A stretch of DNA of 64,000 nt from a phage, in the sequence record NC_101837.1. The stretch is one strand, 5' to 3'. Shown in pieces: positions 33,095-64,000 of this stretch. Position 1 is the stretch's first letter, and each line of letters opens with the position of its first letter. Both the position numbers and the translations under genes were made by a program. The notes under the pieces were generated by a model. That model was not told where the DNA came from, made no database searches, and saw nothing but the letters and a program-made list of their open reading frames with translations.

Positions 33095-36000
33095 TTACTT
33101 CAATTTCTCTTGCAACCCAGTAACAACCTCTGTCAATTTTTTAACCTGCTCCTCAAGGGCGGTTATTTTATCATCCTGTTCCCTGCAAACCTGGACAAGC
33201 AAGCCTGTTACAGCTGCGTAATCCACGCTGTAGAATCTTTCCTCTGTTATCAAAGGAGTTCCATCTTGATCAGGGTTTGGGATTTCCTTTCTTTGCACGA
33301 AAGAGCTAACCGCTTCCGGCAGAGCTTCAAGCACTTCTTGTGCTATAACACCTGCATAAGGCATACCGTTCTCTTTAAGAGTGTAAGTATAACCCTTCAT
33401 CTTCCGGATAGCTTCTAACGCATCAGGAATAACAGCTATGTTATCTTTCAGGTCTCTGTCAGAACTCTGATTGACAGATGTGCAATTCACAGCGCCGTTT
33501 ACAGAAAGATATCTTGATTTATCCGGCAAGGTACCGCAATGCCATACCCAATTTGATTGAGACTCGTCAAGAACCTTAAACTCTAACACGTTTGGACGAT
33601 CTCCTGTGCTGCCGTTACCCCAATAATACATATGGGCGGCATTAGCAGGCATGTTGCCACCGTTATTAGTAACATGGCTTCCAGAAATATACACCTTTAA
33701 CTCTGGGGTTGGTATTTCCCCTTCTGGGGTTGTTCCTCCATACCTGAAGCTAACACCATTACCACCTGTTTGGGTCCACGGGCCCCAAGTGAAGACCTGT
33801 TTCACCATATTCCCATAACGTGTGAATCTATCGCCATGGTAGGTAATATACTCTTGAACACACCCATTACCGTTATTGGCGTTATTTTGCAACACAATAA
33901 GTGTTCCGGCCTCATTTACGGGATAATGACGATCATATGTTGCATCATTATTTGCAGGCTGATGGTAAATACCTTCCCACAATCCGTGATAGGTGTTAAG
34001 GTCTGAAGAACCAAGACCTTGACCCCTGTGTTGCATGGCCTTATTCCAGGGATGGTGATTACCACCTTCTATAGACCTGGTGTATAAGTTACTTTGTCTG
34101 CCAGCAATCTGGAAAGCGTAGTTTCCCGAGAATCCTACAGATAACCCGCCTACAACCATGGTATCTTGTGGGCCGTTAACATTACCAGCTATTATTTTTG
34201 ACGGGTTGTTAGGCCCAAACTGGTTGTTCCAGTCTGCACCCGTGTGGCATACAAAACCGCCCGGAGCTGAGAAAGTGCCATCTTTGTTGAAGTTGTAGAA
34301 TCTATGAGCTGTGCCTACAACATCACGAACAATAACTTGAGCAGCTTCTGGAGTAGATCTGAACTCTGCCTGACCTTGGAGACCAGCACCATTACCGCAT
34401 TTAGAGGTAAACGTACCGTTAGTCAGATCACCTGTCCCATCTGATGCACACTGGAATCCTGCATTAGAGAATAACGCCTTTCTAGGACTGCCGTAGCACA
34501 AATAGTCAAGACCGTCTGCCCATAGCTCGACTTTTGGCATATTCATTTTGCTCATCACAGCATAGCGTTCAGCAGTGCCTATATAGTGCCACTGTGTGCC
34601 GCCACCAGTGTAGAACCCTGAAGTACCTTTGAAGTCAACAATAGGTCTGGTATTGGTGTTATTATCTCCAAGAATAGCAAGATTCAAATCTGCTGACTGA
34701 AGAGGTGCAACGAACTTAACCCCATCCTGATTGTCTGTTACAGCCCCAACCTGGTAATCTTGCTCTCTGGTAAACACTTCGACAACATTTCTACTTGCGT
34801 ATATGCTGACAGGGAAAGCACGAGCCTCCACATAGAAAGCAACATACTCTTGTTTACCCCTTGTTGGAGCAATCATCCCAAGAAGTGCTTTTTCATTCTG
34901 GTAGAAATTTACTACCCCGTAGAAAGAGTCTCCCCTGTCCGTCCAGCCGCCAGTTCTATAGTGACACTGCAGGGTGGCACAGTTCATAGGGTCATTTCCA
35001 GATGAAGACCTGGTGACTATAGTAATATCTGTACCTGTCGAAGGGGCGTAATACGGATCTGTTCTAACGATGATTGGGTAGTATTTCCCATCTTCCATCC
35101 CTGCGGTTCTTGGCAGTGTTAAGAAGTCTTTTACACCTGCTGCTATAGGAACTTTGAACAGATTCTGAGCATCTGCTAAAGTTGTAGCCCCAGTACCACC
35201 TGCGGCTTGAGGTAAAGGTTCCCACTTGGCCTTCCGGTTGTTATAAACACCCCATTCCAGAGTGCCGTTACCGGATTCGTCCATTCCTCCATCCCAGACC
35301 ACCATCTTGGCGGCTTTCTTGGACCCCCAAAAGCCTCTTTCTGCTCCTGAACTACGGATCCATTCTCCAAGTCCCCAGTTTGTCAGCTGACCAGTAAGAT
35401 CCCCAACCTGCATATATTTAGGGCAGTCTAATACGCCGTCTTCGCGGAAACCTAAATATCTGTGAGTTTCAGATCCTTTTGCACCTTTGTGCAGGTGGAT
35501 TGTCAACCAAGCCTTATTGTCGTTTCTTACCTCAGAATAGATCCTATATCCATGCTCAAGGACACCGTCAGCGCTGTATTTGTCCCCGTTAACAATACCC
35601 GAGGCTGACTTAACATCAGCAGAACTTTGAGACAGGTAAATGTGCCCGAAGGTAGGGGTATTTCTAGGCCCAAGACCGATGTGCGCTCTAAAGGTATCAT
35701 CGTTACGAGGTCTGACCATCGGCTGCCATGCAGTCCACTGGTTTGTGTTGGCCTGATAGGTTCTCAAATACCAAACATCTACGTTAGAGAATGGGTAGTA
35801 TTCCTGACGACAACCTGTACCGCCGTTAGCATTGTTCTGCCAAACAATCAAGTGACCAGCACCAGAACCTGCAGGGTAACCATTTGCCTCAGTTGCATAA
35901 GCAGTCATCGGCTGGTAGTATACACCATCCTGATTACCAGTCAAGTTATTGATATTGAAATTTGGCTCAAGGGCTGCACGTTGCTTATAGAAAGCCCCGA

Positions 36001-36942: not shown

Positions 36943-39540
36943 TTAAAGGTACAATCCACGGTATTGAGCATAAAGGCCCAGACCGCGAAGGATTTCGCCA
37001 GAGTGATAGCCCACCGGATCAGAAACTGCCCAGCAGCCGTTTAAAACATTATCCCCATTGATGAAGTGGTGCTTTTGCAGTAGCTTCATACAGGCTTCTA
37101 CAACAATGTCTATTTGAGGTATTGTCTCTGAATACCCGCACAGACCTAGCCAGCAGCAACCTGCAAGCCATTCACCTACCACCCACATCCTGTCCCCTCT
37201 GTCTTGATAAGAATATCCCCCAGAGGTGTTAAAGTCTGTAGGCAGATTTCCTGAATGAGATGACTGGAATCTGTTGAGGAACCATGCCCATTTCTGGCAG
37301 AACAGGAATAATCTTTCATCAACAGGTTCTTTATGTTTCTTGAGCTCATAGATTGTGCGGCACGCAGCAACAAAAGATCTTGACTGGAGCTTAGAGTTAT
37401 CTACCATCTCCCACCAACCAGTCAGCCCTTCATTACCTCTCTGCCATACATAACGCGAGGCAACTGGACCCTCTGTCTTAAATGTATTATTATACCAGAC
37501 TTGAGCGTCATACAGAAAGCCTATTGTATTTGACAATCTATGGCGATCTATGTTTTCTGCACCCATGCAGTATACTGCTGGGTATTGCATGCCAGGGTAG
37601 GGCCAATTTGGCTTTTCCTCTAAGAGATAGTTTTCCTTATCTATCACCTTTCCGGCAGGGAACACACCTGGTGTGTGCCTGTATGCACCTTGCTTGTAGT
37701 TTCTGACATAGCAATCACCAACCTTAGCGGTTGATTCTGTCTTGCTTGCCATCCATACGCTAAACCATATTAGATAAGCATCCCTATCTGCAATATAGAA
37801 CTGCGGCAGCGTGTTTACGCAGTACAGATCAAACAAGCCATTACCTATCTGCCTGTCGCTTAGGCTGAAATCTACAGAGGTGAGCCCCTTAGGATTAGCA
37901 AAGAAAGGTTTAATCTCTTCTTCTGTGTGATGAGGTTGTGTCGGATCTAGTTTGAAATCTCCTAGAGTAAGAGTTTCTGTTATCCATTGTCCATTAGTGG
38001 CATATAGATCAGCATACCATAACCACCTATCTTTGTCAAGAAATTTGACCCTTACCATCTCATCATCTGATCGATAAGTTACTGAGTTTAAAGAAATCTC
38101 TCTCCCAAAATTGAAAGTTACTTTACCTCTTGCTATATTACAACGGGTGAAGTTGTCAGAGTGGTTGTAAATGTCGGTATCATACTGCATACTAACACTA
38201 GCGCCACCGCTTACGACAATGTTTTCCTCTTTAGGTAAGAGATACGGATTACCGTCTTTACCAACTACCTCTACGAAATCAGTGACCTTGGCAACTATTT
38301 CTGTTACCTCTGCCCCTCCAAAAGGAACCCCTATCCTGTACTGTTTTTTGTTATTGTTGCCATCATTAAGGATGAAATGTGGCTGGAACAGAACCCCTTC
38401 TCCTCCGAAATTCATAACAATTTCAGCATCTCTGCCTATTTTGTATGTAGTCCCTTTTTGAATTATTTCGCAAGGCTGGCGTGCGTTCATTCTAAAATTG
38501 ATATACCCGTCACTGTCCCTGCTCATGGCAGGAACTGTTCCTGCAACAAGGCAAGTACCATCTGTAAACGGTGCCTTAATCAACGTGGTCTTCCTAAACA
38601 GTTTGTCGTAGGCGTTTATATCACTGAAATTAAGCAATTTGTTGTAAGACTGTTTAAACGCGGTGTAATACTTTTCCTCACCTGTCAAGGTGTAGAGTTG
38701 ATAACAAGCGTCACACCACATTTCTTCCCCGTCCAACTCTGGGGCCTGATTATCTGCAACCACGTTTATAGGATTTACAATTACAGGGGATCCTGCAGGT
38801 ATCACCGATCCGCCCTGCTCTTGAGGTAATCTTACACAATAGGTCACCTTGTGGCTGCCTGTAACACCCTTATCTTGTAATTGGATTGTGCCGAACTCTA
38901 CAGACGTATGACCACTGTCGGCTATGCTACCGTTAGCCCAATAGCGGTTACCATCCCATGCTATGTACCACTCAACCCACCAACTTAATCCGGATGTTGT
39001 CCAATCTGGGTTAGCATCTGTGCCACCGTAAACATCAGAGTCTACAGTGTTTCTTCCTAACACACCGTTATACGCTTGGAATGCCTTGTCAAGGTATTCT
39101 CCCCATGTCGGAGATCCAGCTGGGATTTTTCCTCTACCGTTGGTAAAAGACACCACCACATCTTTAAACCCACCATGTGATGGAACCCCATCTGTGGATA
39201 GGGGGTAGTGGGACAATCTTTGCATTTTACTTTCTACTGCATATGCACCCAGAAGATGGCTATTGTAAGCTTCCCAAGCATCTTTTGCCCTACCCAGATA
39301 GAAATCGCTTTTCGATGCCCTGTATGCTTCAATGTATCCCAGAATCAACACAGCTTGGGACTCATGCATTGCCCAATCATTATTTATCTTATCACCTGCC
39401 CACCCTGCAGCTATAAGACCATCAGGGTTTACTAGCTTATTTTGTGTAGGGGTGTTGGTAATACCTGTGTTGTTATCGAGGCACTTCCTGTGCCCCTCAA
39501 TCATCTGAAATACGTTATCAATGTTATGTTGAATACGCAT
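36943..39540 (-). CDS. large tailspike-like protein (865 aa), possible carbohydrate-active domain
   Basis: Trp/Tyr/Gly-rich ORF directly downstream of an anchor-domain gene; enzymatic role is conjecture. Confidence 0.35.
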   Translation of the reverse strand: MRIQHNIDNVFQMIEGHRKCLDNNTGITNTPTQNKLVNPDGLIAAGWAGDKINNDWAMHESQAVLILGYIEAYRASKSDFYLGRAKDAWEAYNSHLLGAYAVESKMQRLSHYPLSTDGVPSHGGFKDVVVSFTNGRGKIPAGSPTWGEYLDKAFQAYNGVLGRNTVDSDVYGGTDANPDWTTSGLSWWVEWYIAWDGNRYWANGSIADSGHTSVEFGTIQLQDKGVTGSHKVTYCVRLPQEQGGSVIPAGSPVIVNPINVVADNQAPELDGEEMWCDACYQLYTLTGEEKYYTAFKQSYNKLLNFSDINAYDKLFRKTTLIKAPFTDGTCLVAGTVPAMSRDSDGYINFRMNARQPCEIIQKGTTYKIGRDAEIVMNFGGEGVLFQPHFILNDGNNNKKQYRIGVPFGGAEVTEIVAKVTDFVEVVGKDGNPYLLPKEENIVVSGGASVSMQYDTDIYNHSDNFTRCNIARGKVTFNFGREISLNSVTYRSDDEMVRVKFLDKDRWLWYADLYATNGQWITETLTLGDFKLDPTQPHHTEEEIKPFFANPKGLTSVDFSLSDRQIGNGLFDLYCVNTLPQFYIADRDAYLIWFSVWMASKTESTAKVGDCYVRNYKQGAYRHTPGVFPAGKVIDKENYLLEEKPNWPYPGMQYPAVYCMGAENIDRHRLSNTIGFLYDAQVWYNNTFKTEGPVASRYVWQRGNEGLTGWWEMVDNSKLQSRSFVAACRTIYELKKHKEPVDERLFLFCQKWAWFLNRFQSSHSGNLPTDFNTSGGYSYQDRGDRMWVVGEWLAGCCWLGLCGYSETIPQIDIVVEACMKLLQKHHFINGDNVLNGCWAVSDPVGYHSGEILRGLGLYAQYRGLYL

Positions 39541-56928: not shown

Positions 56929-58476
56929 TTAGATAAAACGCTTGAACATAGAAGGTGATGAGATTGATGGAATCACACAAGGAAGTGCTACCTCCTCTTT
57001 CTCCAGGAAATTAATCGCAGAAGCTACGCAGTCGGCCCAGTCGTCTTTTCTGTTAAATGTTGATCTTTCCCCGTTGAATTTTTCAAGTTCAGTCAGAAAT
57101 GCTTCCAGAGTATCAGGATGGAAACTGGATTTTACAATCCTCACCATTCCTTGTTGGGCAAGATTGGCAAAAGGTGAGAACCTTGTCAGTTTAGACTTGT
57201 TGGAAGGCATTGGGTCTTCTTCAACCCTGAACCCTTCGGCAAGCAAGGATCTGGAGGAGGTTAAGAACTCACTCTTACCTGCCTGCCCTGGGTCCACAGA
57301 GAAGACGATTATGCAATCATCACCATCGAACTGCGCCTGTTTCCTGATGATCACATCTCGTTCACCAGCCTTTTTACAGAACTTGCCTTCCAGACCTGTG
57401 GAATATCTCCCGTCATCCACGTTCTCAGGACAATAATCGCCGGACAGGTAATAAAAGCCGTCGCTATCTTTACTTACCTTAATACTGGCAGTAAAGTCAG
57501 GAAATTTATTACCGGAAGTTCTCTCGGTTCCTGCCTTATCCCATGCCCTGCAAGATACTGATCCAAGAGGTACTCTATCGGCATCACGAAGGAAAGATCT
57601 TTGAAAATAGTTTGCACCCTCAGGCTTTGCAAACCAGTTACCATGGAGAAGCTGAGCTTTTTCCAGCTCTGGTAGACCTTCGAGGAAAGCAAGGTATTCT
57701 GGGTTGTCTCTCAAACAGACAGGATTATCGAATATTGTTGCGCCTATGAACGAGAATGACAACGGTCTTGGCTTGATCTCTACACCAAGTCCGTTAACCG
57801 TGGTGTATTTCTCTATCAACTCTTCTTTAGAATCTCCCCAGATAAATTCACCGTCGCGTCGGATAAAATATCTTTTCTTACCGCATTTCTCCGGATCTGG
57901 ATACCCTTCATCGTCCAACCACCATCTAACCAGTTTGGCAAGCATGTGTTCTGAATCGGGGTTACAGCTGATAACCATTCTTGATGGATACTTTGACTGA
58001 GATCGCAGACGAGACATCAGGTAGTCTATCTGCTCCCATTCGAACTGCGTGCCCTCATCGAAGCAAACCATGGTGTACTCAAGCCCCTGATGGTTAAGCT
58101 TATCTTGTACATACTCCATATGGCAGTATTTTACAACAGCTCCCTTTTTGCTTCTATCCCACTTACCAGTGTTCGGATCAAACCGTGGAAAAATGAACTT
58201 ATGATCCTTCTCTCTGAACTTTGGCTTAATGTTTTCAGGCAGATCACTATAAATAGCTACTGCTTTAGGCCATAGTCCACCCTCACCTTCCAACTGTGGG
58301 GTTGTTCTTCGGAACATAACCACAGAGCTGTGGGGGTCATCAATAATTTTAAGTGGCATCAACTGCAAGAGGAACGACTTGCCAGACCCTGCTGCACCGC
58401 CGATTACCAAGATATCTGCATCGTTTTCGAGGATCATCTTCTGCTTTTCAGAACACGGTCCGTAAATCTTAGACAT
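56929..58476 (-). CDS. terminase large subunit
   Basis: 515 aa; Walker A VIGGAAGSGKS near N-terminus; acidic nuclease-like C-terminal half; AAGGAGAGAGG before ATG. Confidence 0.7.
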   Translation of the reverse strand: MSKIYGPCSEKQKMILENDADILVIGGAAGSGKSFLLQLMPLKIIDDPHSSVVMFRRTTPQLEGEGGLWPKAVAIYSDLPENIKPKFREKDHKFIFPRFDPNTGKWDRSKKGAVVKYCHMEYVQDKLNHQGLEYTMVCFDEGTQFEWEQIDYLMSRLRSQSKYPSRMVISCNPDSEHMLAKLVRWWLDDEGYPDPEKCGKKRYFIRRDGEFIWGDSKEELIEKYTTVNGLGVEIKPRPLSFSFIGATIFDNPVCLRDNPEYLAFLEGLPELEKAQLLHGNWFAKPEGANYFQRSFLRDADRVPLGSVSCRAWDKAGTERTSGNKFPDFTASIKVSKDSDGFYYLSGDYCPENVDDGRYSTGLEGKFCKKAGERDVIIRKQAQFDGDDCIIVFSVDPGQAGKSEFLTSSRSLLAEGFRVEEDPMPSNKSKLTRFSPFANLAQQGMVRIVKSSFHPDTLEAFLTELEKFNGERSTFNRKDDWADCVASAINFLEKEEVALPCVIPSISSPSMFKRFI

Positions 58477-59824: not shown

Positions 59825-59923
59825 GGTGCTAGGCGATGGAATCGAACCACCTATGTATTCAACGACTACCTCGTCTATTTTCAGGATTAAAAATCCTCGC
59901 CCTTGCCAAAGGGCTTACCTAGC
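59825..59923 (-). tRNA. atypical tRNA-like gene (possible anticodon UUU; ~30-nt extra arm)
   Basis: canonical T-arm GGUGG-UUCGAUU-CCAUC and 7-bp acceptor GCUAGGU/GCCUAGC, D-arm GCCC-UUUGGCAA-GGGC, anticodon region AGGAUUUUUAAUCCU, but ~97 nt long. Confidence 0.4.
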
Positions 59924-61493: not shown

Positions 61494-61703
61494 TCAACAG
61501 ATTCCGGCCTTATCCTTCCTGTCTGCGTATTCTTTAATCGCAACCTCATCTGCATTAGTGACCAGGTCTTCAAAGTAACTCTCAAGCTCCTCGTCAATGT
61601 CAGGAGACCAGCCCTTTTTCCTGTCAGTGTGAATCGCAGACTTGTTAAACTTAGTACAGTTCTTTGCTACCGGATTGTTCATTAAGCACCCCTCAGCGTT
61701 CAT
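61494..61703 (-). CDS. hypothetical protein
   Basis: 69-aa ORF overlapping upstream gene by 11 nt. Confidence 0.3.
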   Translation of the reverse strand: MNAEGCLMNNPVAKNCTKFNKSAIHTDRKKGWSPDIDEELESYFEDLVTNADEVAIKEYADRKDKAGIC

Positions 61704-62271
61704 AGTAAATCTTATTTAACATTACCTCATCCTTTGCAGAAAGGATATCTAGATATGCATCACCGAATCTACCTGCAACAACCTCTGCATGATACATCAC
61801 TTCGTTAATATCGTCAAGAGTGATAACTGGATGACCGTATCTCTCTGAGTATTGTCTCAGAGTGCGATGTAGGGAGTCATCATCATAGGCAGACTTTTTA
61901 ATATCGCAAACACGACGAATAGCCTTGATGTCGAAAAACCCTGTACGATACCAACCAAGAAAAAGGTTTCGTGCAGTGTCAACATCTACATCAATACCAT
62001 TAAGAACCTTATCTACAAGATAGCTGTCATCCTTTGGACCAGCTTCCTTAGTGCGAATGTAGTTGCCATCTTTTCCAGGTGACATCTCCTTCTCATCACC
62101 AACCTGCATGCCATCATTTGGCGGTGTTAGCCACTTATCCGGATGCTTACGATCACGAGCGTTAGAATGATTACGCTGGAAACCGGGCTTCCACTTGAAA
62201 GTTTTCTCCATCTGTTCTTCATTCTGATAACGTTTTGCAATCTTTTCACGGTCATCTTTGCGTGAACCCAT
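61693..62271 (-). CDS. hypothetical protein
   Basis: 192-aa ORF; GAGGAGG 5 nt before ATG. Confidence 0.45.
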   Translation of the reverse strand: MGSRKDDREKIAKRYQNEEQMEKTFKWKPGFQRNHSNARDRKHPDKWLTPPNDGMQVGDEKEMSPGKDGNYIRTKEAGPKDDSYLVDKVLNGIDVDVDTARNLFLGWYRTGFFDIKAIRRVCDIKKSAYDDDSLHRTLRQYSERYGHPVITLDDINEVMYHAEVVAGRFGDAYLDILSAKDEVMLNKIYYER

Positions 62272-62640
62272 AGCTGCCTCCTCTTCAAGTTATAGAAAAA
62301 CTCACTGTATCGCTTTGTAACGAGCTTTTCTATCAAACTGGTGCGATTGCATTACCTGGTATAGTTTATATAGCTGTGGAGCGATTTAGGGGCCTTCTTG
62401 TCAGTTTCCACACATAAACTTCATCCAAGCTCGCGCGGGAGACTCTCAACCGACTCCTTACGGCGCTGGCAAGCTTTCGTCGGTGGTCCACATCAGTGCT
62501 CGGCCTTTGGCCTGCGCTATCGCTTCGCTCCCACACATGTTAACAGACCTGCATGTATGAACTTCTGTTATTGTGTGCACCAAGGAGGCCCGGCATCTCG
62601 CCCCTCGTAGGCGAGTGCCAATGAAGGGCCGACACTGCCC

Positions 62641-62775
62641 ATAGTAAGTAATAAATTTAAAACATGGTACTTAGGATCTAGTATATTCTACATAAGTTAA
62701 GTATATGTACTTAGTACCATAAGTACTAGATCTTTTATTTTTTATTATTTAGTTATTTTAGTTATATTCTTTATG
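62641..62775. other. AT-rich region with nested inverted repeats (candidate DNA-unwinding element)
   Basis: inverted repeats TAGTAC-N5-GTACTA (62712-62728), GTACTTAGTAC; long A/T runs 62731-62770. Confidence 0.35.
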
Positions 62776-62856
62776 TGTCCGTATCACGGACAGTTAGTGT
62801 CCGTATTACGGGCAGATGTGTCCGCGTGACGGACAGTAGTGTCCGTATCACGGACA
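62776..62856. repeat. four tandem 17-bp palindromes TGTCCGTnnnACGGACA at 21-22 bp spacing (iteron/operator array)
   Basis: copies at 62776, 62798, 62819, 62840; copies 1 and 4 identical, 2 and 3 one mismatch each; degenerate half-site at 62865-62880. Confidence 0.6.
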
Positions 62857-62931
62857 GTTAATAGTATCCGTTCCATGACGAACATAAAACATACGAATCC
62901 TTATAGTACAGATATTTAAGTTTTTACTGGT

Positions 62932-63282
62932 CTAACCAGTTGTTGACATCCGAATAACTTCTTCTGGTGGCAAAACTTTGGAAAATGTGCATCTTTTACC
63001 TCTCCCTTGTGTGGATGTTTCAACCACTCCTGCACATTCTAAAGTTTTAACGCACGCTGCTGCTTTTGTTTTCTTTATCCCAACATCTGCTGCAATTTTC
63101 CTTGTGCTTGGTGTGAAGCGTGAATTTCCTCCAAGCTTATACCAGTTGTGCAGGTAGCAGTATACGATCTTGTCATACAAGTCAAGAACAACAACCTCTC
63201 CAGTTGTGTCATTCAAAACTTTTGACATAGATAGTATTTCAAGGGGGACTTTAAGATATAGCAGCTTATCCCCATCTTTCAT
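62932..63282 (-). CDS. putative DNA-binding protein (winged-helix/HTH-like)
   Basis: 116 aa; segment STRKIAADVGIKKTKAAACVKTLECAGVVE resembles HTH recognition region; gene directly precedes the palindrome array. Confidence 0.35.
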   Translation of the reverse strand: MKDGDKLLYLKVPLEILSMSKVLNDTTGEVVVLDLYDKIVYCYLHNWYKLGGNSRFTPSTRKIAADVGIKKTKAAACVKTLECAGVVETSTQGRGKRCTFSKVLPPEEVIRMSTTG

Positions 63283-63329
63283 ATCTCCTGATTCTCCTTG
63301 TGTGGCAATTTTCTTTAAAATAGCAGGGA

Positions 63330-63884
63330 TTACTCCCTGCTGTCAATATCAAAACTCATTGCAATACGGTATGCCTCTTCTAATGGTAAGAGTCTTCCCC
63401 ACACATCCCAACCGACATCAAGCTGCCTGCCAAACAACTGTTGTGTGGTTCCGTGAGCATGACCGAACAGTTGGACTGATCCGTGAGGCTTTCTGTTCCA
63501 CTTTGCAAACTGGTAATGGCTCATACAGATCAAATTCTTGTTGTGGCGAAGCTCGTAATAATCTACAACCTCATGACCGAACTCTTTCACAATTCTGACA
63601 GTCGTCCTTGTGTCATGGTTGCCACGAACAAGAATAATATGTCCGTTCAACATATTTAGAATATCTGGAAGTAAGTTGTTGATATTCTTATCATTAGTGC
63701 ACGCAATATCTCCCAAGTGGAACACAGTGTCTGCAGGTGACACAACAGAGTTCCACTCGGCGATGATTCCCGCATTCATACTGTCAAGATTGTGATCATA
63801 CTGAGATCTGTGTTTTTGACATGAATCAAACTCCATGACCCGCTGGTGGAGAAAGTGTGTGTCGCTTGTTACAAAGTATTTCAT
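63330..63884 (-). CDS. metallophosphoesterase (calcineurin-like phosphatase)
   Basis: motifs SDTHF, HLGDIA, VRGNHD, GHAHG; ATG 63884 preceded by GAGGAA; ORF track start 63989 is a TTG in an upstream open frame; stop codon lies in loop of hairpin 63323-63340. Confidence 0.55.
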   Translation of the reverse strand: MKYFVTSDTHFLHQRVMEFDSCQKHRSQYDHNLDSMNAGIIAEWNSVVSPADTVFHLGDIACTNDKNINNLLPDILNMLNGHIILVRGNHDTRTTVRIVKEFGHEVVDYYELRHNKNLICMSHYQFAKWNRKPHGSVQLFGHAHGTTQQLFGRQLDVGWDVWGRLLPLEEAYRIAMSFDIDSRE

Positions 63885-64000
63885 ACATTCCTCATTTAAG
63901 TTTAATGCAGTTTTTAAGCTGGCGTTCCATACGATCCACAACCTTGTCTGGAACATCATGAATGCTTTTATTACCGTGGCGGTTTTCAACCACGATCACG

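Follow-up and report, generated by a model that had tools for sequence, protein, structure and literature searches.

A winged-helix gene, four phased palindromes and an AT-rich tract as a candidate replication origin of rV5-like phages

What is the function of four near-identical palindromes that lie between a small gene for a putative DNA-binding protein and a very AT-rich stretch of DNA? A preliminary description of a phage DNA segment of 64,000 nucleotides (64 kb; NC_101837.1; the whole segment is called the window here) raised this question for positions 62641-63282 and offered two answers, namely a replication origin that mirrors the lambda ori, or an operator array. Judged from sequence comparisons, the locus is probably where vegetative replication of rV5-like phages starts, an origin of the iteron type whose initiator is a minimal winged-helix protein.

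The stretch 61600-64000 is 98-99% identical to more than 100 Escherichia phages of the genus Vequintavirus, which are rV5-like myoviruses of about 137 kb (some of the matching records are mislabelled as Campylobacter phages). According to the BASEL study, rV5-like phages rank among those most frequently isolated on E. coli. They are widely considered for therapy and biocontrol, and their origin is so far unmapped. In the rV5 genome paper the origin was sought by AT and GC skew, and only skew changes that follow the direction of transcription were seen (PMC3606486). Our literature searches, including full-text searches, returned nothing relevant on the origin, iterons, transcriptome or satellites of Vequintavirus or rV5. 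The repeat array, at 65152-65232 in rV5, is marked merely as a "repeat_region" in a few GenBank records. The adjoining gene corresponds to rV5 open reading frame (ORF) 79, annotated as "putative transcriptional regulator", and its product is named "replication initiation protein" in several records, including RefSeq entries. Along the direction of transcription, all on the minus strand, the order is phosphoesterase gene, promoter, gene for a 116-amino acid protein, spacer, four repeats, AT-rich tract, GC-rich stretch and ORF77.

Four palindromes and an AT-rich tract at a single locus

The features named in the preliminary description were recovered: near-identical copies two helical turns apart at 62776-62856, an AT-rich flank with inverted repeats of its own, and an adjoining small helix-turn-helix-like gene. 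The array consists of four 17-bp copies within 81 bp, with the consensus TGTCCGYnnnRCGGACA and centre-to-centre distances of 22, 21 and 21 bp. The palindromic core has a 6+5+6 structure, TGTCCG-N5-CGGACA, and position 7 and the central three bases differ between copies and between relatives. The iteron nearest the gene, TGTCCGTATCACGGACA at 62840-62856, has arms that are invariant in 13 relatives. It is followed by TGTCCGCGTGACGGACA at 62819-62835, which in some relatives has the symmetric form TGTCCGC...GCGGACA, by TGTCCGTATTACGGGCA at 62798-62814 with one arm mismatch, and by a second TGTCCGTATCACGGACA at 62776-62792 that adjoins the AT-rich tract. The nearest repeat ends 75 bp beyond the stop codon of the 116-amino acid gene, and the 3' half of the intervening spacer (62858-62931; 74-75 bp) is the most variable stretch of the segment in the alignment of 13 relatives.

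The palindrome was found at one place only. With up to three mismatches the pattern had seven matches in the window against 1.76 expected, a number reached in none of 100 shuffles, and all four matches with no or one mismatch fell in the array. The array was also the top-scoring tandem repeat of the window (Tandem Repeats Finder scores of 126 and 110). Together with rV5 66-138 kb, the uniqueness and stability scans covered about 136 kb, or about 98% of an rV5-type genome. Across this DNA the palindrome with up to two arm mismatches was confined to the locus, save one two-mismatch match at 34936 in the window; the remaining two-mismatch matches in rV5 were isolated. Occurrence at one locus makes a dispersed regulon unlikely. 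When IMG/VR was scanned for the iteron pattern, there was one site per contig among the matches listed, except for one contig with three scattered sites. A search with the 17-mer core in genome_contigs gave 120 matches in unrelated taxa, which is in line with chance in 596 Gb, and was discarded. A human-gut rV5-like contig (L260, 6090-6150) carries three iterons instead of four, so the iteron copy number varies in nature.

The presence of the repeats in close relatives had been set beforehand as a check on which the idea could fail. When 13 full-length relatives with overall identities as low as about 90% were aligned, the repeats were the least variable part of the segment. Variable columns made up 6% of the repeat array and 10% of the AT-rich tract, compared to 17% of the winged-helix gene, 14% of ORF77, 23% of the GC-rich stretch and 31% of the spacer between gene and repeats. 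Substitutions within the repeats were located in the central bases or preserved the symmetry. The array and the AT-rich tract are thus less variable than the flanking genes, suggesting a stronger constraint than on the neighbouring proteins.

The AT-rich tract (62641-62775; 135 bp, 20% G+C) is a candidate DNA-unwinding element on the basis of its stability profile and the alignment. It is the 135-bp stretch with the lowest G+C content in the window, and its nearest-neighbour stability of -140.1 kcal/mol makes it the least stable one as well (z about +6; mean -181, standard deviation 6.5), the next best stretch in the window having -158.4. It is also less stable than all of rV5 66-138 kb, where the best value was -153.8. 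The tract contains inverted repeats at 62664-62674/62710-62720 and a second pair, GATCTAGTA/TACTAGATC, at 62675-62683/62724-62732. The sequence GATCTTTTATTTT at 62729-62741 is the sole exact match in the window to GATCTnTTnTTTT, which we take to be the consensus of the E. coli oriC 13-mers.

The winged-helix protein and its covariation with the repeats

The gene at 62932-63282 on the minus strand, which encodes the 116-amino acid protein and candidate iteron-binding initiator, had been predicted from its reading frame. It is a real gene, as the variable columns are distributed 10/11/40 over the three codon positions. The protein matched phrog_12838, "replication initiation protein", over its full length (5e-80), a family that essentially consists of these rV5-like proteins, and it had weak matches to the DNA-binding region of larger initiator families (phrog_8102, 428 and 270). 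Pfam DUF6945 (score 27.4, cut-off 28) and HTH_36 (score 24.5, cut-off 25) both fell just under threshold, and the uncharacterised protein in PDB entry 4ro3 was matched by sequence with an E-value of 2.5e-6. An AlphaFold2 model (pLDDT 82) predicted a winged-helix fold that takes up the whole chain; a single-sequence AlphaFold model (pLDDT 39) was unusable. The top Foldseek match of the model was again 4ro3, followed by the N-terminal domains of RepA_N proteins (4pql, 4pt7, 5kbj and 4pta). The model thus appears to resemble the N-terminal domains of RepA_N initiators, but not decisively. The Pfam families RepA_N (PF06970) and Phage_rep_O (PF04492) were both absent among matches at E-values up to 0.1, and an hhalign comparison with lambda O gave a probability of 0.1%, that is, no profile similarity.

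The protein was confined to the genus both in the phage collection and in an index of 5.8 billion proteins, and tblastn and word-indexed searches with the protein and with ORF77 gave matches in the genus only. An exhaustive hidden Markov model search returned 15 proteins at E-values up to 0.001, most of them marginal. With the phosphoesterase gene as an anchor, the region in PVP-SE1, Klebsiella phage DP and ESCO5 was found to be rearranged and the module absent. The divergent intergenic region of PVP-SE1 (Seunavirus; L012 2638-2983, 75615-75960 in the phage) contains tandem repeats of its own (a 24-nt unit x1.9, a 13-nt unit x2.9, and TGGGTCAGT x3), and this may be the counterpart control or origin region of that genus. 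Distant homologues of 182-217 amino acids in other phages are encoded at the divergent intergenic region between the primase-helicase and polymerase genes. The distant homologues of 146-217 amino acids (P0009, P0013, P0016, P0017 and P0019) mostly carry an acidic tail that ends in P-F, for example ...DEDPDAPF, the exceptions being P0013 (...PWEA) and P0019 (...NF). The acidic ...D/E-x-P-F tail of several of them resembles the C-terminus of SSB, a partner-binding tip, and is absent from the rV5 protein.

A sister lineage of 130-139-kb phages (contigs L135 and L265-269) has kept the order of gene, palindromic repeats, AT-rich tract, GC-rich element and ORF77. Its protein has 143 amino acids and is 28% identical to the 116-amino acid protein (pairwise E-value 7e-7). 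The palindrome is a different one, TCTGATACA-N4-TGTATCAGA, present in at least five copies after the stop codon with a spacing of 21-22 or 33-34 bp, about two or three helical turns; these repeats are conserved among five contigs. A related-locus search of IMG/VR gave no match, although a sister-lineage contig is present there. That protein and palindrome have switched together is the strongest indication at hand that the protein binds the repeats, and we infer that the 116-amino acid protein does so. This covariation alone does not separate an origin from an operator.

The distinction depends in part on the promoters. The winged-helix gene has a sigma-70-type promoter at 63317-63346 on the minus strand (TTGACA-18-TATTTT with TG; 10 of 12 matches in a consensus scan), and rV5 is annotated with the Sigma70-type promoter P76 at the homologous place. 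The promoter spacer holds a perfect hairpin, GCAGGGA-GTAA-TCCCTGC, followed by TATTTT. Its arms are kept in the sister lineage while the loop differs, and it may be a terminator of the upstream gene that overlaps the promoter or an operator for another factor. Within 62272-62931 neither a sigma-70-like promoter nor an intrinsic terminator was found on either strand, and there was no match to the proposed rV5 late motif TggTAaAAtA with up to two mismatches. With up to one mismatch the late motif matched 20 times across the window, 17 times on the minus strand, and it is common in the late region. Thus, no promoter of the scanned classes is present at the repeats and a classical operator that overlaps a promoter is not supported.

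The main rival to the origin is nevertheless a transcriptional switch or roadblock. The protein, bound to the four phased palindromes, would form a higher-order complex that acts as a switch like phi29 p4, either by stopping transcription that runs on from its own early promoter towards ORF78-74, the tRNAs and the late genes, or by activating or repressing an unrecognised promoter in the AT-rich tract. The transcription unit that contains the array is indeed long and runs leftward, no terminator separates the gene from ORF77, and both the covariation of protein and site and the uniqueness of the site are as compatible with a dedicated switch as with an origin. However, neither of the two promoter types was present at or near the repeats, and a roadblock has no need of a neighbouring AT-rich tract that is conserved and less stable than any other stretch of the genome scanned. 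We regard such a control site as an unlikely explanation, though one to be taken seriously.

A GC-rich element common to phage and satellite-like plasmids

Next to the AT-rich tract lies a GC-rich non-coding structured element of 275 bp (62366-62640, minus strand), recognised by a lack of codon periodicity, identity to plasmid DNA and covariation of a helix. The 'ORF78' annotated inside it in rV5 had variable columns distributed 9/11/12 over the codon positions, compared to 10/11/40 and 21/12/49 in real genes, and relatives have indels. Lacking codon periodicity and carrying indels, it is therefore not a gene and is a misannotation in rV5. The following gene, ORF77 (61693-62271, minus strand; 192 amino acids), was restricted to the genus in database searches and always comes after the module.

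When complete E. coli genomes were searched with sensitive settings, the cores of the element, 62426-62493 and 62583-62636, were recovered at 84-87% identity in unannotated plasmid DNA. The plasmids are circular and 13.2-13.7 kb long (including NZ_CP020521.1, L125), and a 39.6-kb plasmid with a core match looks like a trimer. Together with metagenomic contigs the family spans 13.2-13.9 kb (L125, also L124, L128, L129, L256 and L258). These plasmids carry genes for a major capsid protein, a baseplate protein and a tape-measure protein, and the baseplate gene has up to 54% amino acid identity to rV5-type structural genes over stretches of 114 and 71 residues. About 2.9 kb of the plasmid is non-coding and rich in repeats. 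MOB-suite assigned no replicon type to the 13-kb plasmids, and the only replication-like gene encodes a helix-turn-helix protein of about 300 amino acids with weak matches to initiator PHROGs. On this evidence the 13-kb plasmids appear to form an undescribed satellite family of rV5-like lytic phages. At rV5 104013-106618 (L126 38014-40619), 2.6 kb at the convergent end of two transcription units are without an annotated gene. A 49-nt piece of it (rV5 105688-105736) matches a section of the satellite-like plasmid's Rep-like gene with 88% identity.

In all plasmids and in two metagenomic copies the GC-rich core was followed within about 300-850 bp by an array of semi-palindromic iterons of about 20 bp. 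The iteron sequences differ between plasmids, which is also typical of modules that set origin specificity, and fall into four types, none of which matches TGTCCG-N5-CGGACA. Stability was measured in one plasmid, NZ_CP020521.1, and its least stable 100 bp were located between the GC-rich core and the iterons. A GC-rich element, an AT-rich stability minimum and iterons are thus common to the phage and to small replicons that need an origin, and this is the main reason for preferring an origin. It also argues against a control site, as a small autonomous plasmid with no second candidate origin is laid out alike and has iterons of its own.

The GC-rich element itself appears to be folded. One helix was paired in all 12 distinct sequences, and three of its six pairs were doubly changed between phage and plasmid. 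A further change, from A-U to G-U, preserves pairing on the minus (gene-sense) strand only. Within the genus RNAalifold found no compensatory pairs, and the single-sequence z-score was -1.6 on either strand; the covariation was visible only with the plasmid and sister-lineage copies added. Across the whole window only tRNAs reached the Rfam gathering scores, and in 62200-63000 no candidate came near one even under permissive settings. The compensatory changes and the strand-specific G-U pair point to a folded single strand rather than to a duplex protein site, and the element is probably to be read as a minus-strand RNA. It could give rise to a transcript that serves as a primer or forms an R-loop, be a single-stranded site at which the primase-helicase enters, or be an element for recognition by a helper.

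A shared sequence of this kind could also be a packaging or helper-recognition site, recognised by the terminase or another helper factor, with the repeats organising the complex. The rV5 genome is reported to be circularly permuted, which requires a pac site at some position. Satellites often carry the packaging signal of their helper, and here 13-kb plasmids with homologues of rV5 baseplate and tape-measure proteins share the GC-rich core. Furthermore, three independent assemblies end in or at the array, L005 and L010 at the window equivalents 62819 and 62764, and L122 (MG065672.1) with a match that ends at 62870 and a record that ends 9 nt later. These ends could be artefacts at repeats and palindromes or a real discontinuity of the DNA, but contig breaks at such sequences are a common assembly artefact. 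It is the GC-rich element and not the repeats that phage and plasmids share, the repeats being different between the plasmids and between the phage lineages, and the compensatory changes argue for a folded strand instead of a duplex site. The large terminase gene lies 4.5 kb away (56929-58476, minus strand). Taken together, a role in packaging appears improbable. The terminase gene is one uninterrupted reading frame of 515 amino acids in the window, whereas the rV5 annotation joins it from three parts and shows introns and a homing endonuclease.

One more conceivable function is a decoy or immunity site in a phage-satellite conflict, where the protein and its sites would exclude or compete with related replicons instead of starting replication. 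ICP1 reportedly re-uses a RepA-like DNA-binding domain against the origin of the satellite PLE. The rV5-like protein would similarly be a stand-alone DNA-binding domain with a RepA_N-like predicted fold, the specificity of the sites turns over rapidly between lineages, and the neighbouring sequence is common to satellite-like plasmids. However, the putative cognate repeats belong to the phage genome and adjoin the gene for the protein itself, the plasmid iterons do not match them in any of the four types, and a Pfam profile search found no nuclease or other effector domain in the protein. We therefore consider this explanation very improbable.

An origin model and known replication systems

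In the favoured model of an origin, the early host-type promoter (63346-63317) would drive expression of the 116-amino acid winged-helix protein, and dimers of the protein would bind the four 6+5+6 palindromes. Sites two helical turns apart face one side of the DNA and could thus, we propose, wrap it into a nucleoprotein complex. The strain from wrapping would melt the adjacent 135-bp AT-rich tract, where the primase-helicase and the polymerase could enter. The rV5 replisome is T7-like (polymerase ORF228 and primase-helicase ORF230), and ICP1 is among the closest homologues of the rV5 polymerase (PMC3606486). Transcripts of this promoter that run on into the AT-rich tract and the structured GC-rich element may assist the process or provide a primer. 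Binding of the protein, melting, entry of the replisome and any role of RNA are inferred. The choice left open by the preliminary description, origin or operator array, can now be narrowed: the uniqueness of the site, its conservation, the stability minimum, the covariation of protein and repeats, the parallel layout in plasmids and the lambda-like geometry favour an origin, and the operator lacks a promoter of the two scanned classes at the repeats.

Several observations weigh against an origin. The promoter scans covered two classes only, sigma-70-like and rV5 late. The 116-amino acid protein has no recognisable part for recruiting a helicase or primase, unlike lambda O, the RepA_N proteins and the homologues of 182-217 amino acids. 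The module is limited to one genus, although the replisome genes are common to related genera. The AT-rich, T-rich tract of the sister lineage is a short one; about 170 bp separate it from the repeats, and it does not form a stability minimum. A scan of 62200-63300 found no DnaA box (TTWTNCACA) and no match to WATCAANNNNTTR, while TTATCCACA with up to one mismatch had its sole match at 63266-63274, within the winged-helix gene and not in intergenic DNA. The intergenic region thus has neither a DnaA box nor an IHF consensus, but such sites are not required for a phage with its own replisome. GC skew, which had been suggested as a check, gave no support: the skew falls steadily up to the end of the window, and the nearest switch is about 1.5 kb away, outside the window, at divergent transcription. 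Because the switch coincides with divergent transcription, it cannot separate replication from transcription.

A more far-reaching and tentative version of the origin model, which is unlikely to hold as a whole, treats the locus as a three-part module in which the iterons set only the specificity. The 116-amino acid protein would be an initiator reduced to its minimum, any recruiting domain having been lost, and entry of the replisome or priming would depend on the structured GC-rich element, as RNA or as single-stranded DNA. The plasmids would have captured this element to hijack the T7-like replisome of the helper, keeping private iterons and Rep proteins.

If the locus is an origin, it is a further case of a well-known iteron class, useful for a widely used phage group and not surprising. 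A defined pair of origin and initiator would provide a handle for phage engineering and for reading marker-frequency data, and would help to explain the mutually exclusive specificities of initiators and iterons in the sister lineages. The plasmids may matter more, as satellite-like plasmids that share sequence next to the candidate origin point to an undescribed satellite-helper system of a lytic coliphage. They also point to a structured non-coding element, so far uncatalogued, with a possible part in replication. This shared element and the plasmids are what could prove to be new.

Elsewhere in the window, ARAGORN predicted a 99-nt tRNA-like gene with a four-base anticodon (atcc) at 59825-59923 on the minus strand, in the phage tRNA cluster; it is annotated as tRNA-OTHER in phage inoa and was not reported by Rfam. 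The motif CCACACA, although 2.7-fold enriched in the window, had its copies spread over coding DNA and was dropped as a signal.

The lambda record has four 18-bp ori iterons at 39034-39118 (TCCCTC-N5-GAGGGA) with a spacing of 20, 24 and 23 bp, followed by an A-rich tract. The likeness that had been claimed holds for the geometry, with four palindromic iterons of identical 6+5+6 core about two helical turns apart, an A/T-rich tract directly beside them, an initiator gene at the same locus and transcription that reads through the origin region. It does not extend to the parts themselves. The lambda origin is inside the O gene, whereas the array here is 75 bp downstream of the gene; the 116-amino acid protein is unrelated to O and is without the C-terminal domain that recruits the helicase loader; and the AT-rich tract is 135 bp long compared to about 40 bp in lambda. 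Moreover, the phage has its own T7-like primase-helicase and polymerase, whereas lambda uses DnaB via the P loader. The locus is not a member of the lambda O/ori family.

RepA_N initiators bind semi-palindromic direct repeats at their own origin, and RepA of the Vibrio satellite PLE works with the replisome of phage ICP1 (PMC7145576). N-terminal domains of RepA_N proteins, a class that includes the initiators of staphylococcal pSK41 and pTZ2162 and of PLE, were the best matches of the protein model among solved structures after 4ro3, but the phage protein has no match to PF06970 at E-values up to 0.1 and no genus-specific C-terminal domain.

In theta replicons with iterons (P1 oriR, pSC101, F and R6K), too, arrayed direct repeats and an AT-rich unwinding region adjoin the initiator gene, GATC motifs occur in the AT-rich part, and the iteron sequences vary between related replicons while the architecture is kept. 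They differ from the locus in that the DnaA box and IHF site are missing here, and in that their iterons are asymmetric 17-22-mers bound by monomers, whereas true palindromes suited to dimers are found here. The replicon here is also a lytic phage of 137 kb.

Finally, phi29 p4 bends DNA into a multimeric complex at the switch between early and late promoters. As predicted for the rV5-like protein, it is a small phage DNA-binding protein with several phased inverted-repeat sites at a single locus. The phi29 sites, however, overlap defined promoters, whereas here neither of the known rV5 promoter classes was found and an extreme AT-rich tract is attached to the array.

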